The notes under the pieces: model-generated
The model's input: only the letters and a program-made list of their open reading frames with translations
Told to the model about the DNA's origin: nothing
Databases searched by the model: none
Shown here: positions 7,066 to 30,920 of the stretch, piece after piece
Position numbering within the stretch: the first letter of the stretch is position 1
Layout: each line of letters begins with the position of its first letter
Virus record (IMG/VR): IMGVR_UViG_3300044800_000286
DNA: 64,000 nt
Direction: 5' to 3' (one strand)
Origin: a virus
Translations under genes and position numbers: made by a program

Positions 7066-8343
7066 CTAAACCACATCCACGTCCTCGATATCGAAGCCCT
7101 TGCTCGCCGGGGCATCCTCTTCGCCTTCGGCGAAGCGAGCTTCCTCGGCGGTGACTTCCGAAGCGAAGCGCCCGGTGTTGTCGTTGCGGATCGTCTCGGT
7201 GAGAAGCTCCTTGAGCTTGCCCAGCACCTCGGGATTCTCCTTCTCCACGAGGTCTTCGATTGCCGCCTGCTTTGACGGATATCCGGCGATGGCTTCGTCC
7301 TTGGACTTGCCGACGTAGTACTTCGCGCCGGAGTTCGCGATGAACCCGTAGTCGCGGGCGAGTTCCCTCACGCTCATGTTGTCGTCGATCCCCACGCCCG
7401 GTTCGATCCAGATGAACCCCTCGCGGTAGCCAGCCCCGGTGACCTTGTTCTTCAGGGTGCGGGCGCGCACGCGCATCCACATCGACTTGCCCTTGGTTTC
7501 CGGAGTCGCCATGGGGATCACGAACGGGTCCTTCTCCGGCCCCTTGCCGTCAACCTTGTCGGGCTCAAGCGGCTTCACGTCCTTCGCCATGCGAAGCTCG
7601 ACCATGACGCTCGGGATGAAGCGGCAGATGCGCCCGCCGGGGAGTGTGTAGGTGAGGTTCGTGAAGCTGTAATCGTTGGCCCACTGCGCGTCGATGCTGT
7701 CGTCGATGCGGGCGCGGGTCTGGTTGACCATGAGCATGTGCCCGTTGTATTGCTTCATGTACGGGCTGAGGATGTCGAAGAACTTGGTCATCGTCTGGGC
7801 GTGCTTGCCGTAGGACGCCTTCATGGCCTTGCCGCTGAAGATGTCCTTGCGCTCCACCATGGATTTCATGCTGGGGATGGAATCGTAGATGAAGAAGCGA
7901 ACGCCTTCTTCCAGAAGCGCCACGGTCTCCTGTATCGCCTTGTTGGTGGAGTTGGGCTGGAGCAACCTGCACATATCCATGTCCACGCCGATCCGCTCCA
8001 GGTAGGACGGCGTGCCGGTGCCCTCGAAGTCGAAGATGCCGAGGGGCTCCCCGGTGAATTTCTGGTAGTTCTTGGCGACCACGTAGGCCCACGTGGACTT
8101 GCCCACGCCCTCGTTGCCGTGCACCGACGAGACGCGGCCGTGGCGGCTGATGCCCCCGAGGCCGAGCACGCTGTCGAACACGATGAGGCCGTAGGGGACA
8201 AGCTCGTCCACCCAGTCCTTCGTCAGGACTTGGAAATCCGGCTTTTCTTCTTTTCTTGCTTTGAGGAACAACTCACGACGCGCTTCCGGTGTGAGATTAC
8301 GGAGAACTTCCGCGGATGTCTCGGACTTCTGTTGCTTTGCCAT
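7066..8343 (-). CDS. recA: RecA/UvsX-family recombinase
   Basis: GNEGVGKST Walker A, DFEG, YDS Walker B, VNQTR, PGGR, KNKV. Confidence 0.92.
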   Translation of the reverse strand: MAKQQKSETSAEVLRNLTPEARRELFLKARKEEKPDFQVLTKDWVDELVPYGLIVFDSVLGLGGISRHGRVSSVHGNEGVGKSTWAYVVAKNYQKFTGEPLGIFDFEGTGTPSYLERIGVDMDMCRLLQPNSTNKAIQETVALLEEGVRFFIYDSIPSMKSMVERKDIFSGKAMKASYGKHAQTMTKFFDILSPYMKQYNGHMLMVNQTRARIDDSIDAQWANDYSFTNLTYTLPGGRICRFIPSVMVELRMAKDVKPLEPDKVDGKGPEKDPFVIPMATPETKGKSMWMRVRARTLKNKVTGAGYREGFIWIEPGVGIDDNMSVRELARDYGFIANSGAKYYVGKSKDEAIAGYPSKQAAIEDLVEKENPEVLGKLKELLTETIRNDNTGRFASEVTAEEARFAEGEEDAPASKGFDIEDVDVV

Positions 8344-8417
8344 TGTGACGATCCTCCAGCTAGTTGCCGATAAGACCCTAAGGTCGGCGGCTAAGCTCGC
8401 TAGTTAATACTGAACAG

Positions 8418-9266
8418 CTAGATAAAAAAATACTTTCGAATCAAAGTCTTCTTTGGATTAGAGGCGTCTTTTACACCAAGACTATAGCTGGCTTTTTTGT
8501 ACGAATACCAGTATTCGGGACGGTGAAGCATGCCTACGATCTGAATCCTCTGGTTCCGGCCCTTGCCTTTAATCTCTTCGGTGGCGTTGCAAAGACGGGT
8601 GAGAAAGCTGTTCGGAACCTCATCCGGTTTGCCCATCAAAATTTTAGCTGCGTATGACCCCACCATTGCCATGAGCACGCCGTCGCAAGAATCGGAGTCC
8701 AGTTGCGGGTAGATTTTTTGATCCACAAATGTATAGGCTTTAAGGATATTTTCGCGTTTATTTGTGGCTCCACGCCGCTTCAATCCCATAAGCGAACGCA
8801 AAGTACTGGCATTGGGTGTGAGAATACGGATGTCGCCGAAGCTGTCGGCCAGCACGCCGTCCTCAAACAGGATCACATGCAGAATGCGTGAAAGGCCCAC
8901 CAAAAAATCATTTTCTGGCGTTGGAAATTCTGTGCTGATCAGTAACCCCGTGCGCTTGTTGGCTGGGAAAAGCTTCAAATATTCCCGAATATACAGCGCG
9001 ATTAACTTACTTCTGACCCACAGCGTCGTACGAGTATGCCGCCCGTCCTCGATCTTGTCCGGCTTGACACTGCCGATACCCAACCACCGAGTTTGAAGAA
9101 CACCACTCTCTACAAACGCACCCATGACAGCGAACCCCGTGCGGGACACGCTGGGGTCGAGGCCCAGCACCAGCCAGTTGTCTATGTTCGGGTTGGGATC
9201 GGGGACGCGAAGCTCGGGCGGCTTCCGCTCTTTCTTGGCTCGGAGCATGCGGGCGTGCTCCAACAC
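8418..9266 (-). CDS. RuvC-like Holliday junction resolvase
   Basis: VLGLDPSVSRTGFAV, acidic E and D..D motifs. Confidence 0.75.
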   Translation of the reverse strand: MLEHARMLRAKKERKPPELRVPDPNPNIDNWLVLGLDPSVSRTGFAVMGAFVESGVLQTRWLGIGSVKPDKIEDGRHTRTTLWVRSKLIALYIREYLKLFPANKRTGLLISTEFPTPENDFLVGLSRILHVILFEDGVLADSFGDIRILTPNASTLRSLMGLKRRGATNKRENILKAYTFVDQKIYPQLDSDSCDGVLMAMVGSYAAKILMGKPDEVPNSFLTRLCNATEEIKGKGRNQRIQIVGMLHRPEYWYSYKKASYSLGVKDASNPKKTLIRKYFFI

Positions 9267-15944: not shown

Positions 15945-18725
15945 CTACAACTTCTTCATGTCAATGATGGAGTCTACCCACCAACGCGACAGTTTTCTGC
16001 GGTTGCGGGCGAGAAAGCTGCGAAATCCAGCATCAAGAATCCAGATGTGGGCTTTATCTGTTTTTGAACGCACCACGCGGCCCGTCATTTGAATCAGCTT
16101 GAGACCCGCCAACCATTGATACCAGTCGGGGTCTTTTTGCATTCGGGCACGAATATAAGGTGTGAGGGGGGCGAAGGGGATTTTTACGACAATGCAGAAA
16201 CGTGCCAAGTCTTCTTTCAGGTCCAAGCCTTCCGACATTGAGGGCGAGAACAAAACTGTGGGGCTATCCATATCGGCATAATGCTGCTCCACGGCAGCCT
16301 CACGACTGCCTTTCACGCCACTGCTGTGCGTCAATACACGATCAGCTTGAGCGGTCGTGCCGAGATAATCCACAAGATACTTGTTGGTACGGAAGCTTTG
16401 GCAGTGCACTAGGCCCTTGTACTTGCCGTAGCGAGTCATAAGGGCTTCGACTTTCTTGGCCATCAGGGGCAGGGTCCTGTCGATGTTCTTGTAGCTCATG
16501 TCGCCCACTTCGTCGAAGAATATCGGGCGGTTCTCAACAGGAAACTCGCTGTCCATAGCGAGGACTTCCGCGTCGGCGGGGTCGATGCCGAGGTTGCGCA
16601 TAAAAGTTTCGAAGTCCAAAATCGTGGCTGACATAATTAAAATCTTGCTCGCCTTACAGAAGAGAATCTGATCGGCGAACAGCCGGGCGGTGAGCGGCTT
16701 GATAATGAGATCACCTGTGCCCCTCTTCTTGTTCTCGTCCCAATCACTGTAGGCGAACCATTCCTCCGGCTGCTCGGCGTTGGTAAACAGGGCGATGCGG
16801 CTTAGGAACTTGTCAGTAGCGTTGATCTTTTTGGCAACCTTGGATTTCTGCTCGCTATCTCCGGCGTCACGAGCCTTCTGGAGATCGGTACGATACTGGC
16901 GGTATTTTACCTGTGTGGCGGGGACGAAGATGTTATTGAGCCATTCGCACACGTGAGCGGTATCGCCCTCGTGGAAAAGCGGCAGCCGCCCCGCCTCGTG
17001 TTCGTCGCATTTCTTCTGCGTGATGTTGGTGTCGGTGAAGCCGAGGATCAAATCTTCCGTGCCGTGGGCTTCATCCAAAATCAATAATGTGCGGTCGGGA
17101 AGCTGGTGCGCTGTCGTGGTCTCAGCAAGATAGTATGCGAAATTCGTCACAGAGAGGGGGCTGCCGATGAAGCGGGCCTTGGCTGGCTTGTACCCGTGGC
17201 AGGTCTCGTGGTTGTGCATGTCCTCGAACACGAGGCTGGCGGACTCGCAGTCCATGTCGAACTCAGGGCAATAGTAATTCGCCTGACCCCGGAGTTCCAC
17301 GAGACCGTTCTTCTCAAAGTCACCCATCAATTGCTCCGTGAGGACTTTTTGCGGGGAGAGATAATACGCCCCCGGCTCATAAGCGCCATAAGTGGGAAGG
17401 GTCTTCGCATAGGAGCCAGCGGCGATGCCTATACCAGAATTATGTACTACTGTGAAATCGCCGAGAAGGAAGCGACCGTTGCCGTCTACAAAAAAGCCGA
17501 AATACTCGCCTCGCCCCGCTGGCAACACCTTGATGCCCGTGACAAGTGGGTCTTTCTTTTGTTGCCGAGGAGGACTCTGTTTACGTTGGAGAATAGACGG
17601 GATACTTTCAATCCCCACCCCAGAGGATACTGAAATTCTCCAATACTTTCCGACGACTGGACCGTCTTTGGCGTTTGTGCAAGTCTTCTTGCACGGTTTC
17701 ATATAAGCGGCAAAACCCAAGGAACGACAAAGATAGGCCACATCCTCGGCAAGTTGTTTGATTTTAAAAATAAACCCATACCCACCATGAACTATGTGAT
17801 GCCCATCAGAGTCAATAAGCCCAGCAAAAACACGCATGCGAGTCTCACGGGAATTACATTTATAAGATTGCGGGATATGCTTGTTGTTCAAAAGATCGAG
17901 ATCACGCAACATACTAAGCAGGGGATTTTTCTTGCGGCTTTTTGGATCACCGCCGCGCTCCCCGGTAGTTAATGAAAATGTGTAAGCGTTGTTATGAAAG
18001 TATGAGTTGACCTCCAACCCGAGAACGCTAGCGTAGCCGGACAAAAATCCACTGATCTCAACGTCCGAACTTGTAACTTCGGGGCGGTCACTTGTACCAT
18101 CACCCAGCCACAACCCCAAAAAGTACGGATCAACAGTAGTGGGTTGCCACGGGAACGATACTTCCGTACGAAACCCCTTCAAAAGATGTTTCTGTGTCTT
18201 AGATAAAGAACGATAATCCTCCAACGGAATATCCGCAACCGTATTCGATACTGCTTTGATCCCTAACTTGCGAAATTGTGGCACTTGGGATTTAGTGTAA
18301 ATTCCCTTGGTCTTGGTACCCCCCGTGAATTTCAGGCTAAGAATGTGCTGGGAATTGACTGTGTATTTGTCCCCCTTGATCGGAACTACATCGTACATTT
18401 CATCAAAGCCGTGAGACAAAGAAAGTACTCGTCGGGGCGTCGAATCGTTGCCCATGAGCAAGTCCCCAATGCGTACATCTTGCACTTTTTTGATTGTACC
18501 GTCGTACATTAAAACAAGAGTATCAAGACAAAAACACTTGCCCCCTCCGGTCGGAATTTCAAGGATGCAAAACTTCTTTGGACCGAGCAGCCAATGACTT
18601 ACAAGCTTTAATGCTTGTTCCTGCACTGGACGAATCTCCTCAAATGGAAAATGATCCGTGATGGTGCGGGACATCTCGCGGGTCAGATTCACCGACGCTG
18701 GCGCTGCTGCGGTTTCTTCGCTCAT
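15945..18725 (-). CDS. DinG/XPD-like SF2 DNA helicase, intein-containing
   Basis: Q-motif IRPVQ, PTGGGK|S, DEAH, MSAT, EGLD, QMTGRVVRS; start moved to leaderless ATG 18725. Confidence 0.9.
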   Translation of the reverse strand: MSEETAAAPASVNLTREMSRTITDHFPFEEIRPVQEQALKLVSHWLLGPKKFCILEIPTGGGKCFCLDTLVLMYDGTIKKVQDVRIGDLLMGNDSTPRRVLSLSHGFDEMYDVVPIKGDKYTVNSQHILSLKFTGGTKTKGIYTKSQVPQFRKLGIKAVSNTVADIPLEDYRSLSKTQKHLLKGFRTEVSFPWQPTTVDPYFLGLWLGDGTSDRPEVTSSDVEISGFLSGYASVLGLEVNSYFHNNAYTFSLTTGERGGDPKSRKKNPLLSMLRDLDLLNNKHIPQSYKCNSRETRMRVFAGLIDSDGHHIVHGGYGFIFKIKQLAEDVAYLCRSLGFAAYMKPCKKTCTNAKDGPVVGKYWRISVSSGVGIESIPSILQRKQSPPRQQKKDPLVTGIKVLPAGRGEYFGFFVDGNGRFLLGDFTVVHNSGIGIAAGSYAKTLPTYGAYEPGAYYLSPQKVLTEQLMGDFEKNGLVELRGQANYYCPEFDMDCESASLVFEDMHNHETCHGYKPAKARFIGSPLSVTNFAYYLAETTTAHQLPDRTLLILDEAHGTEDLILGFTDTNITQKKCDEHEAGRLPLFHEGDTAHVCEWLNNIFVPATQVKYRQYRTDLQKARDAGDSEQKSKVAKKINATDKFLSRIALFTNAEQPEEWFAYSDWDENKKRGTGDLIIKPLTARLFADQILFCKASKILIMSATILDFETFMRNLGIDPADAEVLAMDSEFPVENRPIFFDEVGDMSYKNIDRTLPLMAKKVEALMTRYGKYKGLVHCQSFRTNKYLVDYLGTTAQADRVLTHSSGVKGSREAAVEQHYADMDSPTVLFSPSMSEGLDLKEDLARFCIVVKIPFAPLTPYIRARMQKDPDWYQWLAGLKLIQMTGRVVRSKTDKAHIWILDAGFRSFLARNRRKLSRWWVDSIIDMKKL
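17439..18536 (-). mobile_element. intein with LAGLIDADG homing endonuclease (366 aa) in the helicase Walker A
   Basis: K|CFCLDTLVLMYDG ... FLLGDFTVVHN|S; LGLWLGDG and FAGLIDSDG motifs. Confidence 0.92.
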
Positions 18726-18731
18726 GTCCTT

Positions 18732-18760
18732 AGTATACGGCAGACCGGGAGATTTTGCTA
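18732..18760 (-). promoter_or_regulatory. sigma70-like promoter TAGCAA-N17-TATACT (leaderless)
   Basis: Member of a repeated promoter family; ATG 6 nt after the -10. Confidence 0.65.
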
Positions 18761-18835
18761 CTTTTAAGCTGTTTAAAACAAACAACTTGCATGCATTTTA
18801 TGGCCGAAAAGTCACCAATTGCACATAGCCTAATA

Positions 18836-21682: not shown

Positions 21683-23344
21683 TTATCCGTTTCCTACTAG
21701 CGTCAAGCAAATATCCGCGAGCGTTGCGTCCGCCGTGCCCGGACCATCAACCTCAAGAATATCCGAAGCGCTGAAGCTGATCGCGGAGGCTTGCGTGTAC
21801 GTGCCCGTTTCCCCCGCCGGAGGACTGCCCGTTTCGCTCCCGAAGACGCATGTCGCAAACGGAACGCCGTTCTTGCTGAACGAGAAGGTCGTGCCGAGGG
21901 TCGCTCCCGTGCCCGCGGTCGCGAGCGAGAGCGTGGCATTGATCGGGAAGGTCATCGGTATTCCGAGGGGTCCACGGAAAAGTATCTGGCTGTCCGTGCC
22001 GACGCCCGGAGCGAAGATGCACAGCGGTTTCGGGACCGCGGGCAATTCCAGCGTGATGGGATTCGTGCCGCCAACCGTGATCGAGGAGTTGGGAGAGGTG
22101 ATGGTCACGGAGCCGGTCTCGGTGTTGAGGCTGCTGACGCCGGCGCTTCCGCCGCCCGCGGGAACATTCCAAGTCCCGTCCGCCCTAAGAAAATATGTCG
22201 CCGCCTCGACGGCGGTGGAGGCGGGAACGAGACCTGCGACGCCGCTCGTCGGGGGGGAAGCCACGGCTCCGACGAAGGTCGGGACCGAACCCCATGCCGC
22301 TGCTGTTGGGCTTGACGCGACAAGAACTTTACCCGCCGAAGGCGCTGTAATGGAAATGACCACGCCGTTCAGATCGAGCGGACCTGTGATTCCGACGCTT
22401 CCCGCGGTGAGTCCTCCGGTGATACTCACAGTTGCATTAGCAGACCCGATGTTGATAACTTCTCCGGAATGAACAGTTCCAATGCCTATAGTGCCGGCGT
22501 CCAGATAGGCGGTGCCTGAAAGAGCCCTTATTGCTACCCCGTTTGCTCCCGTGGCGCTCGCGGAAATGATGATGCCGCCCACACCAGCGTTACTCTCCGT
22601 GATGTTGATGCCAGAGGTGGAGTTGTCGGCGATGTTGAGACCCAGGTTGGCGGAGTTCACCGTGGCTGGGAGAGTTACCGTGCCTGTGAAGGTCGGTGAA
22701 GCCGATGGTGCCGCCCCAAGATTGATAAGCGCCTGCGCTCCGGTTGTAGCTGCCGTGCCGCCCTGCCCGATCTGCGCGATGCCCGAGATGCGGGAGAAAT
22801 CGTTGAACCCGGCGATGAACAAGACCCCGACGGTCCCGCTGTTGTAGCTCAGGACGTACCCCACGGACTGCTCCGGGGCTGGAGGACTGAGGGGACGAGT
22901 AAGAGTGATCCCGCCCTTGTCAACGGCGGACAAGTAGACTTCCTGCCCGATGCTTGAAACGCTGAAGTCGCCATGCGTGTCGGCGTAGTAGAAGATGCCG
23001 GAAAAGGCAACGGTGACCGGGCTACCGATGCCAGCAGTCTGACTGACGAATCCGGAGGCCAGCACAGGATACGAGCCTGACGGCGGAGTACCTGTTGTGC
23101 CAGCATAAGCAAGCTGCACGTACAGTGTACTGCCCGACTCATAGAGGTTCACGAGGTTGCCGGAGAACAAAGCCTCGCCCGTTGTCGCCACGGTGCCCAG
23201 TTGCAGCAATGTAGAATCAACGACACCGTTTGAATTCAGGGCGACCGGAGCGCCCGGCACGCCTGGCCCGACAACCGCGGCATAGGCGACATCCACGAGG
23301 TTCGTGAGCGGGTTGAATACGCAAATCTGTGTTGGATTAGTCAT
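21683..23344 (-). CDS. tail fibre or structural protein
   Basis: GGTAATT..AL.NLG, SPTFTGTV, FLRADGTW and GVSSLN fibre-type motifs; start moved to ATG 23344 (ATGA coupling). Confidence 0.7.
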   Translation of the reverse strand: MTNPTQICVFNPLTNLVDVAYAAVVGPGVPGAPVALNSNGVVDSTLLQLGTVATTGEALFSGNLVNLYESGSTLYVQLAYAGTTGTPPSGSYPVLASGFVSQTAGIGSPVTVAFSGIFYYADTHGDFSVSSIGQEVYLSAVDKGGITLTRPLSPPAPEQSVGYVLSYNSGTVGVLFIAGFNDFSRISGIAQIGQGGTAATTGAQALINLGAAPSASPTFTGTVTLPATVNSANLGLNIADNSTSGINITESNAGVGGIIISASATGANGVAIRALSGTAYLDAGTIGIGTVHSGEVINIGSANATVSITGGLTAGSVGITGPLDLNGVVISITAPSAGKVLVASSPTAAAWGSVPTFVGAVASPPTSGVAGLVPASTAVEAATYFLRADGTWNVPAGGGSAGVSSLNTETGSVTITSPNSSITVGGTNPITLELPAVPKPLCIFAPGVGTDSQILFRGPLGIPMTFPINATLSLATAGTGATLGTTFSFSKNGVPFATCVFGSETGSPPAGETGTYTQASAISFSASDILEVDGPGTADATLADICLTLVGNG

Positions 23345-25026
23345 CGTGTTCTCGCTGGCCACTGCATCCGCTTGTGCTTGAATTCCTTCAGTTCCGGGAA
23401 GTCGTTCTCGGCATCGGCATCGACCAGTTGGTTCGCCGGGTTCCGCGGCGTGCGGTCGAACTTCGGGGAGTTGCCCTGGTCCCAGAGGTTGGGGCTGCGG
23501 CTCTCCTGCTCGCCGGGCTCCATTACCTGGCCGCTGTTGTGGACAAACACGCCAGCGGACAAAGCAAAATTGTGATATTTGTCTACAGAGATGTCGTACA
23601 CGTCCGCCGTACCCCAATGCGTAACCGAAACCACCTTATGGTTCAAGAATGAAGAACACAGTCCGCATAGGGGGCTGACAGTGCTTCTTTTAACATGCCA
23701 GCGGTCCTGGTTAGTTCTCATCCTAACTTCATCCATGTGCTTGCGGTGATTCGGGTCACTCCAGACTCTTTTTGCTTTCTCTTTCATGCGAACCGAGCTT
23801 TGCTGCCTAAAATCAGCATCCTGCCATAGACTTTTCCACAACTTGCTTTGCCGCTCGCCCGACTTTCTCCCGCCTTCTTCGGACTTGTTCCAAGGTACGA
23901 GTTGCGTTTTGCCTCGTTCAGCGGCTCTTTTACGGTCTTCCTGAGAAAGATTGACTTTCGGTACTCGCTTAAAGGGTGTCGGCTTTCCCGCCCACTGAGC
24001 GTTGAGCCTTAGCATATTTTGCCCGCGCGCCATTCGGGCCTTCTCGGTGACAATTGAGCCCCCCAAGCTCTGATGCAGCTTCAAATGGTCTTCCCATTTT
24101 ATCAACATCAGATTGTCGGGAGAATTGTTGAACCTGTTCAAATCCTCGTGGTGGCGAACATAGCCCTTGGGACAGCGGGCTTCCGCAAAACGGTGCGTGA
24201 ATTTCCAAGAGTCGTCTCCCGGCTGATAGGTGGTTTGATACTTATTGCCTCCAGCTTCCAATGGAGCCGAATCTCGATACAACGGCATGAGAGAATCCCC
24301 GGTCTCAAGCAATTCAGCCGCTTTGTACTCACCGTTTCGCATCAAAAACGGATGGTTAGGGGTGCATTTTATAGTTTCGCCGTTATCCAATGTCACCGCC
24401 AGAACGGCTGCGTCCTTTAGGGTTAGACGAGCAGAATGCCCAAGCCCTGGCCTGAGCAGACCCCCATCATTGAGCGAGTAGACCCAAAATTTATTCCTTC
24501 CGACAAGATCGCTCATGGCGACCTCAGTTCCGTCTAGCAGCGGAACCTTAGTATCTCCCGTCAGACAAATGTCGTATCCGTAAGCCGTGACGCGCTTGCT
24601 GCTTTTCTTGATCGCGAGGGCGGTGAGCCCGTCAAGGATGCCGCCGATCTTCAGGAGCGAATACGATGCGTGGGCGGCTGCGGATTTGTAATTCTTTTCC
24701 GCGGCGTACCGCACCGCAGCCTCGAAATCGCGTTGCGCATTTTGCAGCATGCGGAACATGTCCGGGCGGTTCGGCACCTCTTTTGCGGCTTTTTCCAGCC
24801 CGAGGATAAGCTCCCGGAGATTCGGCTCGGTCTCCGCGAATAGCTGTTCGTCCGCGGGGTTGTCTTTCCAGAGAAGGAAGATATCATCGTAGACGCCCCG
24901 CAAGTAGCTGATCTCCCCCGGCCACATGGCGCTGGACTGGAGAAGCTCGCTCCGGAACCGTGGGGGGGTCTGGAGCGGGGCTAGCCCCGAGGCGGACAGC
25001 TTGGCGATGGAAAGGCGTACAGGCAT
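23341..25026 (-). CDS. hypothetical (possibly virion) protein containing an intein
   Basis: Exteins total about 217 aa with no recognisable enzyme motif; GGGAG RBS before ATG 25026. Confidence 0.75.
   Translation of the reverse strand: MPVRLSIAKLSASGLAPLQTPPRFRSELLQSSAMWPGEISYLRGVYDDIFLLWKDNPADEQLFAETEPNLRELILGLEKAAKEVPNRPDMFRMLQNAQRDFEAAVRYAAEKNYKSAAAHASYSLLKIGGILDGLTALAIKKSSKRVTAYGYDICLTGDTKVPLLDGTEVAMSDLVGRNKFWVYSLNDGGLLRPGLGHSARLTLKDAAVLAVTLDNGETIKCTPNHPFLMRNGEYKAAELLETGDSLMPLYRDSAPLEAGGNKYQTTYQPGDDSWKFTHRFAEARCPKGYVRHHEDLNRFNNSPDNLMLIKWEDHLKLHQSLGGSIVTEKARMARGQNMLRLNAQWAGKPTPFKRVPKVNLSQEDRKRAAERGKTQLVPWNKSEEGGRKSGERQSKLWKSLWQDADFRQQSSVRMKEKAKRVWSDPNHRKHMDEVRMRTNQDRWHVKRSTVSPLCGLCSSFLNHKVVSVTHWGTADVYDISVDKYHNFALSAGVFVHNSGQVMEPGEQESRSPNLWDQGNSPKFDRTPRNPANQLVDADAENDFPELKEFKHKRMQWPARTR
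23536..24567 (-). mobile_element. intein with HNH endonuclease (344 aa)
   Basis: I|CLTGDTKVPLLDG, block B CTPNHPF, HHEDLNRFNNSPDNL (HNH), VYDISVDKYHNF...VFVHN|S. Confidence 0.9.
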
Positions 25027-25138
25027 AAGGCTCCCTATGAAGAGAGCCCAAAAGTTCAATCAAATCTAGGTGATGGCATACTGATTCCGGACTTCCTATA
25101 AATGCTTTCTCAAGTTCAAGATAACGTCCAACGGGGCC

Positions 25139-26818: not shown

Positions 26819-27007
26819 GTGGACGAGATTCTTTGTTTCTACGGATGCGGAAGGCCCGCCAAGTTCGGCAACCTCAGAGGCGCGAATGGCGGGGACCCGC
26901 CTCGTTGCGCCGCTAAACGGTCGGAGTGTCCTGCGATAGCACAGGCGGCGATCAGGGCGGCGAAAAGGGCCGGGCGGCTGGGACGCGGGTGGCGCAGCAG
27001 GCTCTAA
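26819..27007 (+). CDS. possible small protein convergent on the tRNA array
   Basis: LCFYGCGRPAKF motif; TATAAT immediately upstream. Confidence 0.35.
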   Translation: MDEILCFYGCGRPAKFGNLRGANGGDPPRCAAKRSECPAIAQAAIRAAKRAGRLGRGWRSRL

Positions 27008-27009
27008 AT

Positions 27010-27084
27010 TGGCAGCCTCGATGGGTATCGATCCCACTTTCCGGCCTTGAAAGGGCCGTGTCCTAGCCAGTAGACGACGAGGCC
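27010..27084 (-). tRNA. tRNA-Glu(TTC)
   Basis: Cloverleaf; CGGCC-CU UUC AA-GGCCG; encoded CCA. Confidence 0.9.
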
Positions 27085-27090
27085 AAACTA

Positions 27091-27600
27091 TTACTCGAAC
27101 GTCCGCCCTTTGTAAAGAGCGGCCTCGTCCAAGAAAACCTGTCTAGTTCTTTTGGAGTGTTCTATGCGATGACAGATCGAGCACAACAAAACACACTTAT
27201 CTAACTCGCGCTTGATGTATTCCCAAGCTCGATTGGCGACTCCGCCAATCGTAAAATCCTTTTCACCTTTGCAGTGATGAAACTCCAGACCTGCGGGATG
27301 TTTGTCATACCCGCACTGGATGCATTTTCCACCAAGATACATAATGGCTGCGTTCTTCGCCCGAATACGGCGTATCATCGTGTTACAGGACTGACATCTA
27401 GTCCGATGCCGAATATTTTTTCCTAAACCCCCGCCACAAAGTTTACACTTTGAGGGAATAGGTGCCGCCATTCGTTTTGTTTTCAACCCCAATTTAGCCA
27501 ACCAGTACCGCACATTAGATTGGCAGGTGTTGAATTCATCAGCGATCTGACGCTGTGTCAAACCCCTTTCAATGGCTTGTAATACATCGGCACTGTTCAT
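27091..27600 (-). CDS. HTH + HNH homing endonuclease within the tRNA array
   Basis: N-terminal HTH; GGKCIQCGY...LEFHH...KCVLLCSICHRIEH. Confidence 0.85.
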   Translation of the reverse strand: MNSADVLQAIERGLTQRQIADEFNTCQSNVRYWLAKLGLKTKRMAAPIPSKCKLCGGGLGKNIRHRTRCQSCNTMIRRIRAKNAAIMYLGGKCIQCGYDKHPAGLEFHHCKGEKDFTIGGVANRAWEYIKRELDKCVLLCSICHRIEHSKRTRQVFLDEAALYKGRTFE

Positions 27601-27650
27601 TTGTATCTCCTTTGATGCTCTACCGTTGAGCTATATCTAAGGGATACAAA
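27600..27650 (-). promoter_or_regulatory. RBS-sequestering hairpin upstream of the HNH gene, with a tRNA D-arm-like loop
   Basis: UUUGUAUCCCUU pairs with AAGG(A)GAUACAAA; loop contains AUAGCUCAACGGUAGAGCA. Confidence 0.6.
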
Positions 27651-27660
27651 GTCAAAAAAT

Positions 27661-27736
27661 TGGTCCCAAGAGTGGCGCTCGAATCCACGTACTCCTGCTC
27701 TTCAGACAGGCGCTAATCCATCTCAGCTATCTTGGG
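27661..27736 (-). tRNA. tRNA-Phe(GAA)
   Basis: CCUGU-CU GAA GA-GCAGG; CCA. Confidence 0.88.
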
Positions 27737-27746
27737 TTCAAACTCT

Positions 27747-27822
27747 TGGTGCGCCCGGAGTGAATCGAACACTCCACCCCTGCCGTGTCAAGGCAGTGCT
27801 CTAACCGATGAGCTACGGGCGC
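27747..27822 (-). tRNA. tRNA-Val(GAC)
   Basis: CUGCC-UU GAC AC-GGCAG; CCA. Confidence 0.95.
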
Positions 27823-27826
27823 AAAC

Positions 27827-27863
27827 TGGGGGGCGGCTTATACAGTACCCTTTTTTGCCGCCC
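27827..27863 (-). ncRNA. 37-nt acceptor-stem microhelix ending in CCCA
   Basis: GGGCGGC/GCCGCCC 7-bp stem, 19-nt loop, discriminator plus CCA; same GUUU spacers as the tRNAs. Confidence 0.6.
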
Positions 27864-27867
27864 AAAC

Positions 27868-27932
27868 TGGACCGCCCCGTTTGCCTTGCGGCACCTAAGG
27901 TAGCTTCGCGAAAGCCACGATGGCCGAGACGG
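27868..27932 (-). ncRNA. 65-nt tRNA-like RNA ending in UCCA
   Basis: CCGUCUCG/CGGGGCGG stem; internal hairpins GUGGCUU/AAGCUAC and UGCC-GCAA-GGCA. Confidence 0.6.
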
Positions 27933-27939
27933 ATAAACC

Positions 27940-28016
27940 TGGTGGACAGGACACCTTAAGGATTTTACGCATCCCTTTAGCGGGGCGTTTCCCCTCTATG
28001 CGGACGCAACCCGCCC
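27940..28016 (-). ncRNA. 77-nt tRNA-like RNA with G3:U70-type acceptor and ACCA, no T-loop
   Basis: GGGCGGG/CCUGUCC-ACCA; internal hairpin AGGGAU-GCGUAAA-AUCCUU. Confidence 0.6.
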
Positions 28017-28023
28017 TCAAACC

Positions 28024-28097
28024 TGGTGGAGCCACGGGGATTCGAACCCCGGTTTCATCGCTGCGAACGATGTGTTCTCCCGCTGAACTATGGCCCC
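28024..28097 (-). tRNA. tRNA-Ala(CGC)
   Basis: CAUCG-UU CGC AG-CGAUG; G3:U70; CCA. Confidence 0.95.
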
Positions 28098-28103
28098 GAA
28101 ACC

Positions 28104-28310
28104 CTACAATTCGTACTTCACGATCCGACCCTGGGTGCTCGGATCATCCTGGAACTCGATCCAGTGCGCGTAGCAGTAGTGCAGCAGCATCCGGCTTAGC
28201 TCCTCGCTCCTCAGCGGATACTGATAATAGACCATGACGGCGTGGCTCGCCGGAGCGTCGCATCCGTCCGTCTTAGGATCGAACCACTGGCATTTCATGC
28301 CCACCGCCAA
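28104..28310 (-). CDS. small Cys/His-containing hypothetical protein
   Basis: Fills the gap between RNA genes; C..C..H..C..H. Confidence 0.5.
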   Translation of the reverse strand: MAVGMKCQWFDPKTDGCDAPASHAVMVYYQYPLRSEELSRMLLHYCYAHWIEFQDDPSTQGRIVKYEL

Positions 28311-28316
28311 ACTAAT

Positions 28317-28381
28317 TGAGCGGACTCACCGTTTCCGGCTACGGTCCATGTTCTCTTTCAAGCCCAGTTCGCCTTCCGCTC
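28317..28381 (-). ncRNA. tRNA-like RNA with a 7-bp closing stem, no encoded CCA
   Basis: GAGCGGA/UCCGCUC-A directly after the tRNA-Val(CAC) spacer; internal ACCGU/ACGGU hairpin. Confidence 0.45.
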
Positions 28382-28386
28382 AAACT

Positions 28387-28462
28387 TGGTGCGCCCCGCT
28401 GGAATTGAACCAGCGGCCTCTCGCGTGTGAAGCGAGCGCTCTGACCGCTGAGCTAGGGGCGC
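28387..28462 (-). tRNA. tRNA-Val(CAC)
   Basis: CUCGC-UU CAC AC-GCGAG; CCA. Confidence 0.95.
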
Positions 28463-28647
28463 GAATTCAGCAGGCCGAAAAGCTGGTCGGTCGCCGTGTT
28501 CAGCAAAAACAGCGGGGGCGGCTTCAGCGGCTCCGCCCTGTGCCTCGCTTCAAGCTGCGCCTTGTACACGACGAGGTGCTTGTAAATCTCCCGGAGCTTG
28601 TGCTTCGGCACCGCCATCGTTGCCGTCTCTACCTTCGTCTTCTTCAT
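28453..28647 (-). CDS. small basic hypothetical protein (64 aa)
   Basis: GAGGAG RBS; stop lies inside the 5' end of tRNA-Val(CAC). Confidence 0.6.
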   Translation of the reverse strand: MKKTKVETATMAVPKHKLREIYKHLVVYKAQLEARHRAEPLKPPPLFLLNTATDQLFGLLNSRP

Positions 28648-28664
28648 CGTCTCCTCAAAACCCT

Positions 28665-28738
28665 TGGAGCGGGCGATGGGAATCGAACCCACGTCCGTAG
28701 CTTGGGAAGCTACTATACTGCCATTGTACGACGCCCGC
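28665..28738 (-). tRNA. tRNA-Gly(CCC)
   Basis: GUAGC-UU CCC AA-GCUAC; U73 CCA. Confidence 0.95.
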
Positions 28739-28746
28739 TCAAATCT

Positions 28747-28822
28747 TGGTGGACCTGATGGGATTCGAACCCACGACCTCCTCGATGCCATCGAGGCGCG
28801 CTCCCAACTGCGCCACAGGCCC
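28747..28822 (-). tRNA. tRNA-Ala(GGC)
   Basis: CCUCG-AU GGC AU-CGAGG; G3:U70; CCA. Confidence 0.95.
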
Positions 28823-28828
28823 AAAACT

Positions 28829-28905
28829 TGGTAGCCCGGACGGGGCTTGAACCCGTAATCTTCACCTTGAGAGGGTGACGAGTTAGCCAGTTACTCTACC
28901 GGGCC
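28829..28905 (-). tRNA. tRNA-Glu(CTC)
   Basis: UCACC-CU CUC AA-GGUGA; CCA. Confidence 0.93.
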
Positions 28906-28917
28906 GAACTCAAAAAC

Positions 28918-28991
28918 TGGAGCGGGGTACGGGACTCGAACCCGTTTCTCCACCTTGGAAGAGTGGTACACAACCCATATGCCAACCCCGC
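28918..28991 (-). tRNA. tRNA-Gly(TCC)
   Basis: CCACU-CU UCC AA-GGUGG; U73 CCA. Confidence 0.92.
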
Positions 28992-29000
28992 GCAAAACTT

Positions 29001-29323
29001 TGTGTCAGACCGATAAGCCGGGTTCTGTCTGGGACAATCATTCATCTATGACGTACATCGCTGCACGCCTCAAGCTCCCAACCCGCCGCTTGGTAACGCC
29101 CCGAGCAGGGGCTCACGGCCTATTTGGGATTGCTCCGCATGGAGGTTGCCCGTTTCACCCGCACGGTTTCTGCTTGGCAAGCATAATACCGTGCGACTCG
29201 TCTCTGTTGCCCTATTCGTCATCCGGCCTTTCAACCAAACGCCCAGCCGTTAGCTGGCATGCTGCTCTGTGGAGCCCGGACTTTCCTCCCCCATTGCTGG
29301 CGGCGATTGTCTAGCCTGACACA
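29001..29323 (-). ncRNA. rnpB: RNase P RNA (compact bacterial type)
   Basis: P1 UGUGUCAGGC/GUCUGACACA; CR-I GAGGAAAGUCCGGGCUC; CAACAGAGAC; GGUGAAACG; GGAGCAA; UAGAUGAAUGAUUGUC; CR-V ACAGAACCCGGCUUA. Confidence 0.95.
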
Positions 29324-29328
29324 AACTC

Positions 29329-29403
29329 TGGAGCACCCGGTCGGTGTCGAGCCGACTCGTAACAGTTTTGCAGACTGCCGCGTTCCCGTTTCGCCACGGA
29401 TGC
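29329..29403 (-). tRNA. tRNA-Cys(GCA)
   Basis: GCAGU-CU GCA AA-ACUGU; U73 CCA. Confidence 0.92.
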
Positions 29404-29409
29404 AAATTT

Positions 29410-29484
29410 TGGCGGTGCCAGCGGGAGTCGAACCCGCGCTTCTACCGTGACAGGGTAGTGTCAGTACCGCTTGACCATGGCACC
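29410..29484 (-). tRNA. tRNA-Asp(GTC)
   Basis: CUACC-CU GUC AC-GGUAG; G73 CCA. Confidence 0.93.
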
Positions 29485-29523
29485 GCATTGTCCGAAGCGC
29501 ACATCGTTCTTCAGACACAAACT

Positions 29524-29597
29524 TGGTGGACCTGAGGAGAATCGAACTCCCAATTCAGCCTTGCAAAGGCCGCAGTTTCCCGTTAGCATACAGGCCC
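29524..29597 (-). tRNA. tRNA-Ala(TGC)
   Basis: CGGCC-UU UGC AA-GGCUG; G3:U70; weak D-stem. Confidence 0.88.
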
Positions 29598-29869
29598 ACA
29601 ATCTGTTCCCACGACAAACCCAAATACTTCATGCACCAATGGACTGCTTTGTGGCAACGAAAACACAATCTCACAAACTCCCCACTTTTCATCTCAATCT
29701 GGTGTTCTTTCTCTCCCATTGATTCAAATCTCTTGTGTTCTTTACCATCTTTTCGATGCGCAACTGATCTCTTTGAATAACTACAAAAGAAACACTCTTT
29801 TCCAAGATTTGTATCAACTATCGCTCGCTTTCGGTCCCTTCGCTTCTTATTCCACTTAGCAGTCGCCAC
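29555..29869 (-). CDS. small HNH-like zinc-binding protein overlapping tRNA-Ala(TGC)
   Basis: CFFC...AH...LCFRCHKAVH; AGGUGG RBS. Confidence 0.65.
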   Translation of the reverse strand: MATAKWNKKRRDRKRAIVDTNLGKECFFCSYSKRSVAHRKDGKEHKRFESMGEKEHQIEMKSGEFVRLCFRCHKAVHWCMKYLGLSWEQIVGLYANGKLRPLQG

Positions 29870-29895
29870 AAACCCACCTTGGATCGCCTAAACTT

Positions 29896-29969
29896 TGGAG
29901 CGGACGATGAGAATTGAACTCACGCCTGAACGTTGGCAACGTTCCGTACTACCACTATACTACGCCCGC
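29896..29969 (-). tRNA. tRNA-Gly(GCC)
   Basis: GAACG-UU GCC AA-CGUUC; U73 CCA. Confidence 0.95.
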
Positions 29970-29970
29970 T

Positions 29971-30046
29971 TGGTAGCCCCTGTCGGAATCGAACCGACGG
30001 CCCTTCGGGTGTAGACCGAATGCTCTGACCGCTGAGCTAAGAGGCT
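29971..30046 (-). tRNA. tRNA-Val(TAC) with atypical C33
   Basis: UUCGG-UC UAC AC-CCGAA; A73 CCA. Confidence 0.88.
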
Positions 30047-30061
30047 GCACAAAATATCGAT

Positions 30062-30147
30062 CCCGTCTGCACAGGGTTCCGAATCGAACGGGGAGGGAAT
30101 GACCCCCTTTGCTGGTCGCCTATGCCAGCCTGCCCTGTGCAGACAAG
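30062..30147 (-). ncRNA. tRNA-like RNA with a 12-15 bp closing stem, D-like arm and T-loop
   Basis: GUCUGCACAGGG/CCCUGUGCAGAC; GCUGG-CAUAGGCGA-CCAGC; CCG-UUCGAUU-CGG. Confidence 0.65.
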
Positions 30148-30150
30148 AGA

Positions 30151-30185
30151 ACAAAAACAAAAAGGACGACCTTTTCAGATCGTCC
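30151..30185 (-). terminator. attenuator terminator in front of the tRNA/rnpB array
   Basis: GGACGAUC-UGAAAA-GGUCGUCC followed by UUUUUGUUUUUGU. Confidence 0.85.
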
Positions 30186-30239
30186 TCGGAATCTCTTGGT
30201 TGGTTTCTGCTTATCCTTCCCAACCATCCTCCGAGGACA
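30181..30239 (-). promoter_or_regulatory. antiterminator hairpin, mutually exclusive with the terminator
   Basis: UGUCCUCGGA/UCCGAGGACG plus UGGUUGG/CCAACCA; uses 5 nt of the terminator 5' arm; its 5' strand is leader codons 33-39. Confidence 0.75.
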
Positions 30240-30336
30240 CGGTATCGGCCCCTGCCGCGAAGCCTTCAAAGGCTCCGACCGCGCATACGCCGCCCAAGGT
30301 GTCTGCGGCGGCGACGAATTGGAGACTGCGGTTCAT
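30211..30336 (-). CDS. 41-aa attenuator leader peptide MNRSLQFVAAADTLGGVCAVGAFEGFAAGADTVSSEDGWEG
   Basis: Below the ORF-track cutoff; contains a cognate codon for all 14 downstream anticodons; stop codon lies in the antiterminator loop. Confidence 0.8.
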   Translation of the reverse strand: MNRSLQFVAAADTLGGVCAVGAFEGFAAGADTVSSEDGWEG

Positions 30337-30356
30337 GTCTTCGGTACTCTCTATCT

Positions 30357-30364
30357 TGATACTG
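30357..30364 (-). promoter_or_regulatory. CAGTATCA promoter-like motif for the leader/tRNA operon
   Basis: Same motif precedes many minus-strand genes. Confidence 0.55.
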
Positions 30365-30392
30365 CGTATTCGGAAAACTCCCGGTTATTAAC

Positions 30393-30538
30393 GGAAGCTG
30401 CCCGGTAGGGAGTCAAAACCCTATCCGTGCCCGGATCGCAGCTTGCGCTGCGGCATCGCCCCGAACTATGCGGGGGCATTCTGCCGTATGATCCACTCCT
30501 GCGCAGGGGCGAACCACGTTAAACTACGGGCAGCTTCC
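30393..30538 (-). ncRNA. 146-nt expanded tRNA-like RNA
   Basis: 12-bp closing stem GGAAGCUGCCCG/CGGGCAGCUUCC, UAGUUUAA junction, CCCCG-CAUAGUU-CGGGG arm, two GNRA hairpins, T-like arm UAGGG-UUUUGACU-CCCUA; TTGACA promoter upstream. Confidence 0.65.
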
Positions 30539-30574
30539 CGTACTCCCTATCAATACCGCGAAAGCGGGAATCTT

Positions 30575-30614
30575 GTCAAGAACTATTTTTGGGAATTATC
30601 CCTTTAACTCCACA
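30575..30614. repeat. 40-bp dispersed repeat, copy 1 (includes the -35 TTGAC on the minus strand)
   Basis: 36/40 identical to 31385-31424. Confidence 0.85.
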
Positions 30615-30920
30615 AACTTCTAGCGTGGGATTTGGGTTACGTCGCAATTTCACTAAAGTGACGCCCTTGTCAGAACAATTTAACGTCGTGTACTTGATCC
30701 ACGAACGCAGGGACTTGTTGTGACGCAAAACTCGACGGATGCAAACGCCAAGGTAGCCTGTGTTCGTATTTATGAATCCGGGGATTATTCCTCGATTACG
30801 ACCGTGGCCGTGAATCAGCGTCAAACGGTCCTTGCCCGTCTCCCATGCCTGCTGCACAATCTTGTTGAGAATTCCATCGGTGATATCTGCCGGGAAGTAT
30901 CCGTGAAGGTCAATTTCCAC
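30576..30920 (-). CDS. Smr-domain protein
   Basis: EIDLHG and TLIHGHG Smr motifs; GGAGG RBS. Confidence 0.75.
   Translation of the reverse strand: MEIDLHGYFPADITDGILNKIVQQAWETGKDRLTLIHGHGRNRGIIPGFINTNTGYLGVCIRRVLRHNKSLRSWIKYTTLNCSDKGVTLVKLRRNPNPTLEVCGVKGIIPKNSS

Follow-up and report, generated by a model that had tools for sequence, protein, structure and literature searches.

Three CCA-ended units without tRNA bodies tile a gap in the tRNA array of an uncultured huge phage

The 64,000-nucleotide (nt) stretch of DNA analysed here (the window) corresponds to the reverse strand of a virus record of 155 kb in IMG/VR (IMGVR_UViG_3300044800_000286) that is estimated to be ~50% complete; its source is an uncultured huge phage, and the record holds about half of the genome. 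On the minus strand of the window, from 30046 to 27010, lies an operon-like array of 14 transfer RNA (tRNA) genes, as called by ARAGORN, which comprises all GNN decoders together with Phe and Cys and has a class-A ribonuclease P (RNase P) RNA in the middle of the same operon (Rfam, 209 bits). The CCA is encoded in every tRNA gene, and a spacer of the (R)GUUU type follows most of them. Between tRNA-Ala(CGC) and tRNA-Val(GAC) there is a gap of 201 nt, and this gap is fully tiled, head-to-tail, by three units that we call U1, U2 and U3 (Table 1). Elsewhere in the array, many adjacent tRNA genes are 1-12 nt apart and no hairpins resembling these units stand between them.

All three units have the features of a tRNA acceptor end, namely a closing stem of 7-8 base pairs (bp), a discriminator base (A, U and C, respectively) and a 3′ CCA, and all three are followed by the motif CCA-(N0-2)-R-UUU, as are 16 of the 26 tRNA genes in the genome. 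Within these ends the predicted folds differ. U1 is closed by the pairs G1:C72, G2:C71, G3:U70 and C4:G69, followed by G5:U68, and inside this stem it is predicted to form a single long hairpin with imperfect pairing (minimum free energy (MFE) -30 kcal/mol, z -1.8), in which D, anticodon and T arms are all lacking. U2, whose closing pairs begin C1:G72, C2:G71 and G3:C70, is predicted to fold into a three-way junction with one hairpin of 8 bp that ends in a triloop and another, short one with a GNRA loop (GCC-GCAA-GGC). The predicted fold of U3 is a bare hairpin with an A/U-rich loop of 19 nt. A preliminary description of this locus had reported three units of 77, 65 and 37 nt and had pointed to G3:U70 and A73 in the 77-mer; its coordinates, stems, CCA ends and GUUU-type spacers all proved exact, and U1 has G2:C71 in addition to the two elements that were singled out.

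Table 1. Positions of the units, their neighbours and related modules (window coordinates unless another contig is named).
Feature	Position	Strand	Remarks
RNase P RNA, class A	28998..29322	minus	keeps the L15 GGU that pairs with the substrate 3′ CCA
U0, 69 nt	28313..28381	minus	follows tRNA-Val(CAC); 7-bp closing stem GAGCGGA/UCCGCUC; tail A-AUUA, then GUUU
43-amino-acid open reading frame	28107-28235, leader 28236-28308	minus	directly upstream of tRNA-Ala(CGC); 79% identical in L032
tRNA-Ala(CGC)	28097-28024	minus	upstream neighbour; ARAGORN, Rfam 64.1 bits
Spacer GGUUUGA	28017..28023	minus	tRNA-Ala(CGC)/U1 joint
U1, 77 nt	28016-27940	minus	7-bp stem GGGCGGG/CCUGUCC, then A73, CCA
Spacer GGUUUAU	27933..27939	minus	U1/U2 joint; GAUUUAU in L032
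U2, 65 nt	27932-27868	minus	stem CCGUCUC(G)/(C)GGGGCGG, 7 bp extendable to 8, then U73, CCA
Spacer GUUU	27864..27867	minus	U2/U3 joint; GAUU in L032
U3, 37 nt	27863-27827	minus	7-bp G+C stem GGGCGGC/GCCGCCC, then C73, CCA
Spacer GUUU	27823..27826	minus	U3/tRNA-Val(GAC) joint
tRNA-Val(GAC)	27822-27747	minus	downstream neighbour; ARAGORN, Rfam
U2 homologue	L032 3508-3572
U3 homologue	L032 3577-3647
~130-nt structured RNA	L032 3737-3872; L002 7794-7918		UUCG and GAAA hairpins; conserved across two phage lineages
Two diverged ~43-nt hairpins	G000 contig 125786-125828 and 125955-125997		outside the window; downstream of initiator tRNA-Met
47-nt CCA-ended hairpin	G000 contig 123124-123170		outside the window; stem CCCGCAG(C)/(G)UUGCGGG, A73, MFE -24.7 kcal/mol

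Chance is excluded as an explanation for the arrangement of the three units. In 20,000 dinucleotide shuffles of the 201-nt gap, a gap-filling chain of three units with a stem and NCCA never arose (0/20,000), a chain of two arose in 17 and one unit in 758. Because a single match of this kind is not rare (there are ~200 per strand in the 155 kb), it is the tiling, together with the common punctuation, that constitutes the signal. The units are not tRNAs either. Neither ARAGORN nor Rfam, the latter followed to E<=10 in a 3-kb search, called a tRNA or a transfer-messenger RNA (tmRNA) in U1-U3, and no other Rfam family, ribozymes and riboswitches included, matched them at E<=10. No match reaches the 29-bit gathering threshold for canonical tRNAs, the MFE folds contain neither a 7-nt anticodon loop nor a T loop, and the interiors of the units resemble the 26 tRNA bodies no more closely than shuffled controls do (p 0.83, 0.86 and 0.15). 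ARAGORN and Rfam agree in this with the preliminary description, according to which the units are not tRNAs, and the shuffles show them to be non-random. A tmRNA in one-piece, two-piece or permuted form was also considered and rejected: ARAGORN found none, and the permuted model reached 14.4 bits (E 5.2) against a threshold of 47 bits with a match that overlaps tRNA-Ala.

Relatives of the window phage were retrieved from metagenome contigs by means of a pattern drawn from its RNase P RNA. One of them, L032 (Ga0074046_10000828), is a close relative with an RNase P RNA that is 96.6% identical, an overall nucleotide identity of ~80-85% and conserved synteny on both sides, and it is with this one close relative that the units themselves were compared. 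A more diverged type is represented by four contigs (L002, L014, L025 and L074) with an RNase P RNA ~71% identical to that of the window. In L032 the gap between tRNA-Ala(CGC) and tRNA-Val(GAC) measures 152 nt and contains homologues of U2 and U3 but no U1. A coding explanation was rejected on the same comparison, since the open reading frames (ORFs) that run through the units do not persist where U1 is missing.

The U2 homologue of L032 matches at 58 of 65 positions (89%), which is far above the 65-68% identity of third codon positions in orthologous ORFs of the two phages. Among the 13 orthologous tRNA pairs, whose identities span 62-100%, 10 are less well conserved than U2; the probability of at least 58 matches in 65 is 3e-5 at a neutral identity of 0.67 and 0.04 at the array-wide value of 0.80. 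Among the seven differences, two make up a compensatory change from U:A to C:G, one converts a G.U pair into G:C, two (positions 13 and 35) turn U.U into C:G and so lengthen the same helix, and the remaining two lie in the triloop. All 22 pairs are thus kept in L032 and none is broken, an outcome that seven random changes produce in 0.5% of trials if they are uniform and in 3% if they are biased towards transitions. Folded independently, the L032 copy adopts the same predicted three-way junction (z -3.0). Judged by this comparison, U2 is a conserved RNA with a kept structure, and it is under purifying selection. The possibility that it is a tRNA pseudogene was rejected on the grounds that residual body similarity is not above that of shuffled controls and that U2 is conserved above the neutral level with changes that preserve pairing.

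Different parts of U3 are conserved to different degrees. L032 has the same two stem arms, the same flanking AA and UAA and the same discriminator, C73; its loop is 53 nt long, as against 19 nt in the window, and includes an extra 7-bp hairpin, and its tail reads CCU. Given that the stem is kept while loop and tail vary, only the hairpin would be constrained and a genomically encoded A76 would not be required, and U3 appears to be a minimal hairpin in which selection acts on the stem. Two other identities for U3 were rejected, namely a histidine identity, for which C73 fits but the -1 base is U rather than G, and a LexA half-site or promoter in the loop, since L032 does not keep it and a consensus scan did not pick it up.

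The indel that separates the two phages at U1 is bounded by a 12-nt direct repeat, UCCACCAGGUUU, which is at once the 3′ end of tRNA-Ala(CGC) with its spacer and the 3′ end of U1 with its spacer. The acceptor end of U1 (GGGC.../...GUCC-A-CCA) reproduces the first four pairs and the discriminator of the phage tRNA-Ala(UGC) and tRNA-Ala(GGC). Since its end matches these phage tRNAs and the indel falls at the repeat, U1 was most likely derived from a tRNA-Ala gene or by recombination with one. The bacterial determinants of alanine identity at the acceptor end are A73, G2-C71, G3.U70 and G4-C69, with a further one, G20, in the body of the tRNA (PMC9976931); the predicted closing stem of U1 has three of these four acceptor-end determinants (A73, G2:C71 and G3:U70) next to its CCA end. 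U1 therefore has the appearance of a young module, dispensable in the sister phage L032, with an alanine-type acceptor end. With U1 missing from L032 and U3 ending there in CCU, neither U1 nor the terminal A of U3 is indispensable.

These comparisons divide two further points of the preliminary description. The argument that intact stems with rewritten interiors speak against simple decay is borne out by U2 (89%, no broken pair) and holds for U3 insofar as its stem is kept and its loop remodelled; U1 has no counterpart in L032. The homologue search and covariation analysis that had been proposed likewise gave a mixed answer: L032 does have homologues of U2 and U3, and the changes in U2 preserve pairs, but U1 is missing, the U3 tail is CCU and the corresponding slot of the L002 type, between tRNA-Ala(CGC) and tRNA-Val(GAC), is taken by an unrelated structured RNA of ~130 nt. 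Wider searches added no homologues. Among 50,697 phage records, blastn with the 201-nt stretch turned up a single match, of 25 nt and attributable to chance (E=2), and BLAST against five related IMG/VR contigs at full length gave no match to the units. Searches of IMG/VR with DNA patterns, exact as well as degenerate, that covered the U2/U3 junction and the 3′ half of U2 gave nothing, a two-anchor U1 pattern found nothing in Joint Genome Institute (JGI) metagenome contigs, and a 21-nt U2 pattern found one chance match in 185,579 species genomes, within a coding region of a gut Coriobacteriaceae contig. A U2 covariance model run over 13 sources matched only the window and L032, and neither the genome nor the compared loci yielded a paralogue of any unit in short-word BLAST. 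What looks like a second unit in L002, at 9166-9222 behind tRNA-Glu(CTC), probably arose by chance (z +1.2).

Several other modules in these arrays are built or exchanged in a similar manner. U0, in the window, has a predicted fold much like that of U2, with a three-way junction and a hairpin capped by a GAAA tetraloop, and has no CCA. It is absent from L032, and its indel is flanked by AGUUUG repeats; in the comparison with L032, U1 and U0 are each either wholly present or wholly absent, with repeats of the tRNA-end/spacer motif at the borders of the cassette. The ~130-nt RNA, which shows three compensatory pairs between L032 and L002, lies after Val-GAC in L032 and before Val-GAC in L002; it has no match in Rfam and is absent from the window. 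It is framed in the same way as the RNase P RNA, by a terminal helix followed by RGUUU. The two ~43-nt hairpins combine an initiator-type acceptor stem with a D-arm-like GAGC...GCUC and end in ACCA-GUUU and ACCG-GUUUU, respectively; they look like internally deleted copies of tRNA-fMet. The 47-nt hairpin lies 55 nt after tRNA-Pro(GGG) and directly ahead of a small ORF. Taken together, the sequences suggest that the arrays evolve through swaps of whole modules at repeated CCA/GUUU joints, with some of the modules visibly derived from tRNAs.

We propose that U1-U3 are modular genes for non-decoding small RNAs which occupy tRNA-gene slots and use a tRNA-like end as a maturation handle, and that the RNAs are most likely acceptor-end mimics; for this reading as a whole we find belief and doubt to be evenly balanced. 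Its account of transcription, cleavage, stability and function is one that we infer from the anatomy described above. The operon would be transcribed as a single precursor, in which a host enzyme of the RNase E type would cleave the R-G-U-U-U spacers right after each CCA. RNase P, whether that of the host or that of the phage, would then remove the 5′ leader by reading the stem and NCCA, and 3′ exonucleases would trim the products to the CCA, leaving RNAs of ~77, 65 and 37 nt with the acceptor end of a tRNA but neither its anticodon arm nor its T arm. The R-G-U-U-U spacers resemble the preference of RNase E, which cuts ahead of a U-rich stretch. In polycistronic tRNA precursors of E. coli, RNase E cuts 1-3 nt after the encoded CCA and RNase P and exonucleases complete the process (PMC2190699; see also PMC7049720). 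It is reasonable to expect that U1-U3 would leave the precursor as separate RNAs with ends like those of tRNAs. The phage RNase P RNA, which retains the CCA-binding L15 GGU and is without 43 consensus positions in the P13/P14 region, is likely to mature the 5′ ends of the tRNAs and perhaps also those of the units. Pfam found no CCA-adding enzyme, RnpA or Ro60 in the 155 kb, a result that is uninformative given that this is about half of the genome.

The weakest step of the proposal concerns what the released RNAs would do. Most likely, although we say so with low confidence, they would mimic or compete for the acceptor end, and their targets would be synthetases or CCA-end-modifying toxins of the host defence. 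Inhibition of RelA, which the preliminary description had also raised, is unlikely, since RelA needs a whole deacylated tRNA, which it senses in the ribosomal A site. It is plausible, by analogy with minihelices, that the units act as decoys or as competitors of a synthetase. Minihelices with A73, G2:C71 and G3:U70 are charged by alanyl-tRNA synthetase (AlaRS; PMC9976931 and its references 110-111), and U73 alone gives minihelices cysteine acceptance (PMC9976931). U2 combines U73 with the C2:G71 and G3:C70 of the glycine set, but has C1:G72 in place of G1:C72 (set from PMC9976931). As for toxins, the anti-phage toxSAS FaRel2 pyrophosphorylates a bare tRNA-Gly minihelix, of which it reads only the first five pairs and the CCA, and GNAT toxins read the acceptor end similarly (bioRxiv 10.1101/2024.07.05.602228).

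A number of observations weigh against this reading. U1 is absent from the nearest relative, and none of the three units occurs in more distant relatives, so none is widely conserved. At position 4:69, U1 has C:G instead of the G4:C69 of the bacterial set (as do the phage tRNA-Ala(UGC) and tRNA-Ala(GGC)), two G.U pairs lie within its closing stem, and its -1 base is A, whereas bacterial RNase P prefers U. In U2 the C1:G72 pair stands where both glycine identity and recognition by FaRel2 need G1:C72, and the CCU tail of U3 in L032 suggests that an A76 able to accept an amino acid is not needed there. Taken singly, the units have only modest folding z-scores in the window (-1.7 to -1.9), and the covariation in U2 comes from two sequences, from one of which the tested structure was derived.

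Some of the same observations would suit a different history, in which the units are relics, either dead tRNA genes or by-products of cassette shuffling or homing-endonuclease traffic, with acceptor halves that survive, bodies that have been lost or replaced, and no function. U1 shares its acceptor end with tRNA-Ala(UGC/GGC) and the 12 nt of UCCACCAGGUUU with the end of tRNA-Ala(CGC), and it is an indel relative to L032; U3 has lost its CCA there; the two ~43-nt hairpins resemble an internally deleted initiator tRNA, one of them ending in CCG; and HNH genes are interspersed in the arrays. Fragments of tRNA genes are, moreover, common in prokaryotic genomes (PMC9897764). What makes this explanation unlikely is that no residual similarity to tRNA bodies is found in U1-U3, that the closing stems of all three are perfect 7-8 bp helices, and that U2, with its helices preserved, is better conserved than most of the orthologous tRNA pairs and than third codon positions.

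Alternatively, the hairpins with NCCA might serve in cis only, as punctuation: they would be extra marks for RNase P and RNase E, folding insulators or exonuclease stops, and the excised pieces would be functionless. U3 would suit this role well, with only its stem and C-rich tail kept and its loop free to vary, and the phage RNase P RNA belongs to the same operon. The spacers of the array are common to the units, and a terminal stem followed by GUUU is a layout also used by the CCA-less U0 and by the RNase P RNA itself. Extra marks seem unneeded, however, given the close spacing of tRNA genes elsewhere in the array without such hairpins, and L032 does without U1; a cutting mark would also not need the interior of U2, where the three-way junction and GNRA hairpin are conserved with pair-preserving changes. 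On balance we think that a purely cis-acting role is improbable.

A narrower and decidedly unlikely version of acceptor-end mimicry is that the units form a panel of decoys with which the phage soaks up defence enzymes that read the acceptor stem and CCA, or titrates a synthetase such as AlaRS. The panel would present an alanine-type end with A73 (U1), an end with U73, C2:G71 and G3:C70 (U2) and one with C73 (U3), and its targets would be toxSAS pyrophosphokinases of the CapRel/FaRel2 type, MenT-like nucleotidyltransferases and GNAT acetyltransferases, from which the GNN-decoding tRNAs of the phage would be protected. If this were true, the turnover of the U1 and U0 cassettes would record an arms race over the choice of acceptor ends to mimic. 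Very improbable is the idea that U3, perhaps with the others, is an internal promoter or a weak terminator/attenuator for tRNA-Val(GAC) and tRNA-Phe: TATAAG does occur in its loop, 14 nt before tRNA-Val, with TTGGGC 17 nt upstream, and a similar GGGCGG...GCCGCCCCC hairpin with a U-run stands upstream of tRNA-Val(CAC), but a consensus scan of 27000-30700 found no promoter- or terminator-like site in 27823-28023, the U-run after U3 has just 3-4 U and begins 5 nt past the stem, and the 34-nt larger loop of L032 destroys the -35/-10 spacing.

Regarded as putative genes for non-decoding RNAs with acceptor-type ends, U1-U3 have their closest known analogues in RNAC and RNAD of phage T4 (species 1 and 2 RNAs), small non-coding RNAs that lie among phage tRNA genes, are transcribed from the tRNA region and have a role that is still unknown (PMC3014915, PMC9697503). 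Like these, the units are non-decoding and are situated inside a phage tRNA cluster, on the same strand as the tRNA genes; they differ in having no D, anticodon or T arms, in forming a head-to-tail series of three and in sequence, as blastn of the 201-nt stretch against the 50,697 phage records detected no homology. RNAC and RNAD are also longer and more tRNA-shaped. In structure the units come closest to synthetic minihelices from work on aminoacylation and RNase P, such as minihelix-Ala (Francklyn and Schimmel 1989) and the tRNA-Gly minihelix used with FaRel2, which similarly consist of an acceptor-type helix with a discriminator and CCA. Those, however, are laboratory constructs in which an acceptor stem is stacked on a T arm, whereas the units are natural genes, known from sequence, with interiors unrelated to a T arm. 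With canonical tRNA genes (RF00005) and tRNA fragments (PMC9897764) they have in common the position in the array, the 7-bp acceptor stem, N73-CCA and the spacers; they differ from the former in the absence of a cloverleaf, T loop and anticodon loop, and from the latter in that the evolution of U2 is structurally constrained. Full-text literature searches turned up no account of armless RNA genes with CCA ends that occur naturally in phage tRNA arrays. Enzymes of tRNA maturation cut a non-tRNA small RNA from a longer transcript in the case of the MALAT1 mascRNA and of the tRNA-like/miRNA units of gammaherpesvirus 68, and the 3′ETS-leuZ sponge of E. coli is a functional spacer of a tRNA operon. 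Those systems are eukaryotic, animal-virus or bacterial chromosomal and have no homology to the units, and matches to the mascRNA model of Rfam in the window fall only on true tRNAs.

Phage tRNA genes are now known to counter defences that target tRNAs, and the non-decoding RNAs that accompany them have been without an assigned role since T4 RNAC and RNAD. Of a tRNA, U1-U3 retain only what RNase P, some synthetases and CCA-end-modifying toxins recognise. Should they prove to be decoys or competitors, they would be RNA-based counter-defences of a new class, and the minihelices used for decades in vitro would have a counterpart in nature; should they be only processing marks or relics, they would still illustrate how the arrays evolve by cassette swaps at CCA-GUUU joints.

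Some further features of these loci deserve mention. The leader of the 43-amino-acid ORF upstream of tRNA-Ala(CGC) is conserved in L032 and contains a T-loop-like sequence, GGUUCGAUCC; the ORF itself has no match in Pfam, a locus search in IMG/VR gave no relatives, and a protein database returned only its own cluster. The HNH genes of the arrays are small ORFs scattered among the tRNA genes. Two large ORFs near the array, at 15945-18785 and 23341-25059 of the window (both on the minus strand), carry inteins: one has an intein splicing domain with HNH (Pfam), and the other, which is helicase-like, has an inserted Hint-like block. A tRNA-like element that ARAGORN does not call lies between tRNA-Val(UAC) and tRNA-Gly(GCC) in L032 (1153-1245); its D and T arms are normal, the loop on its 'anticodon' stem has 4 nt and its outer stem is extended to 8 bp. 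Finally, a more distant relative of 266 kb, L004, has three CCA-ended genes of 74-77 nt (4788-4864, 7314-7390 and 8306-8379), likewise uncalled by ARAGORN, which have plausible anticodon loops (GUC, UGG and CAU) and non-canonical T loops.

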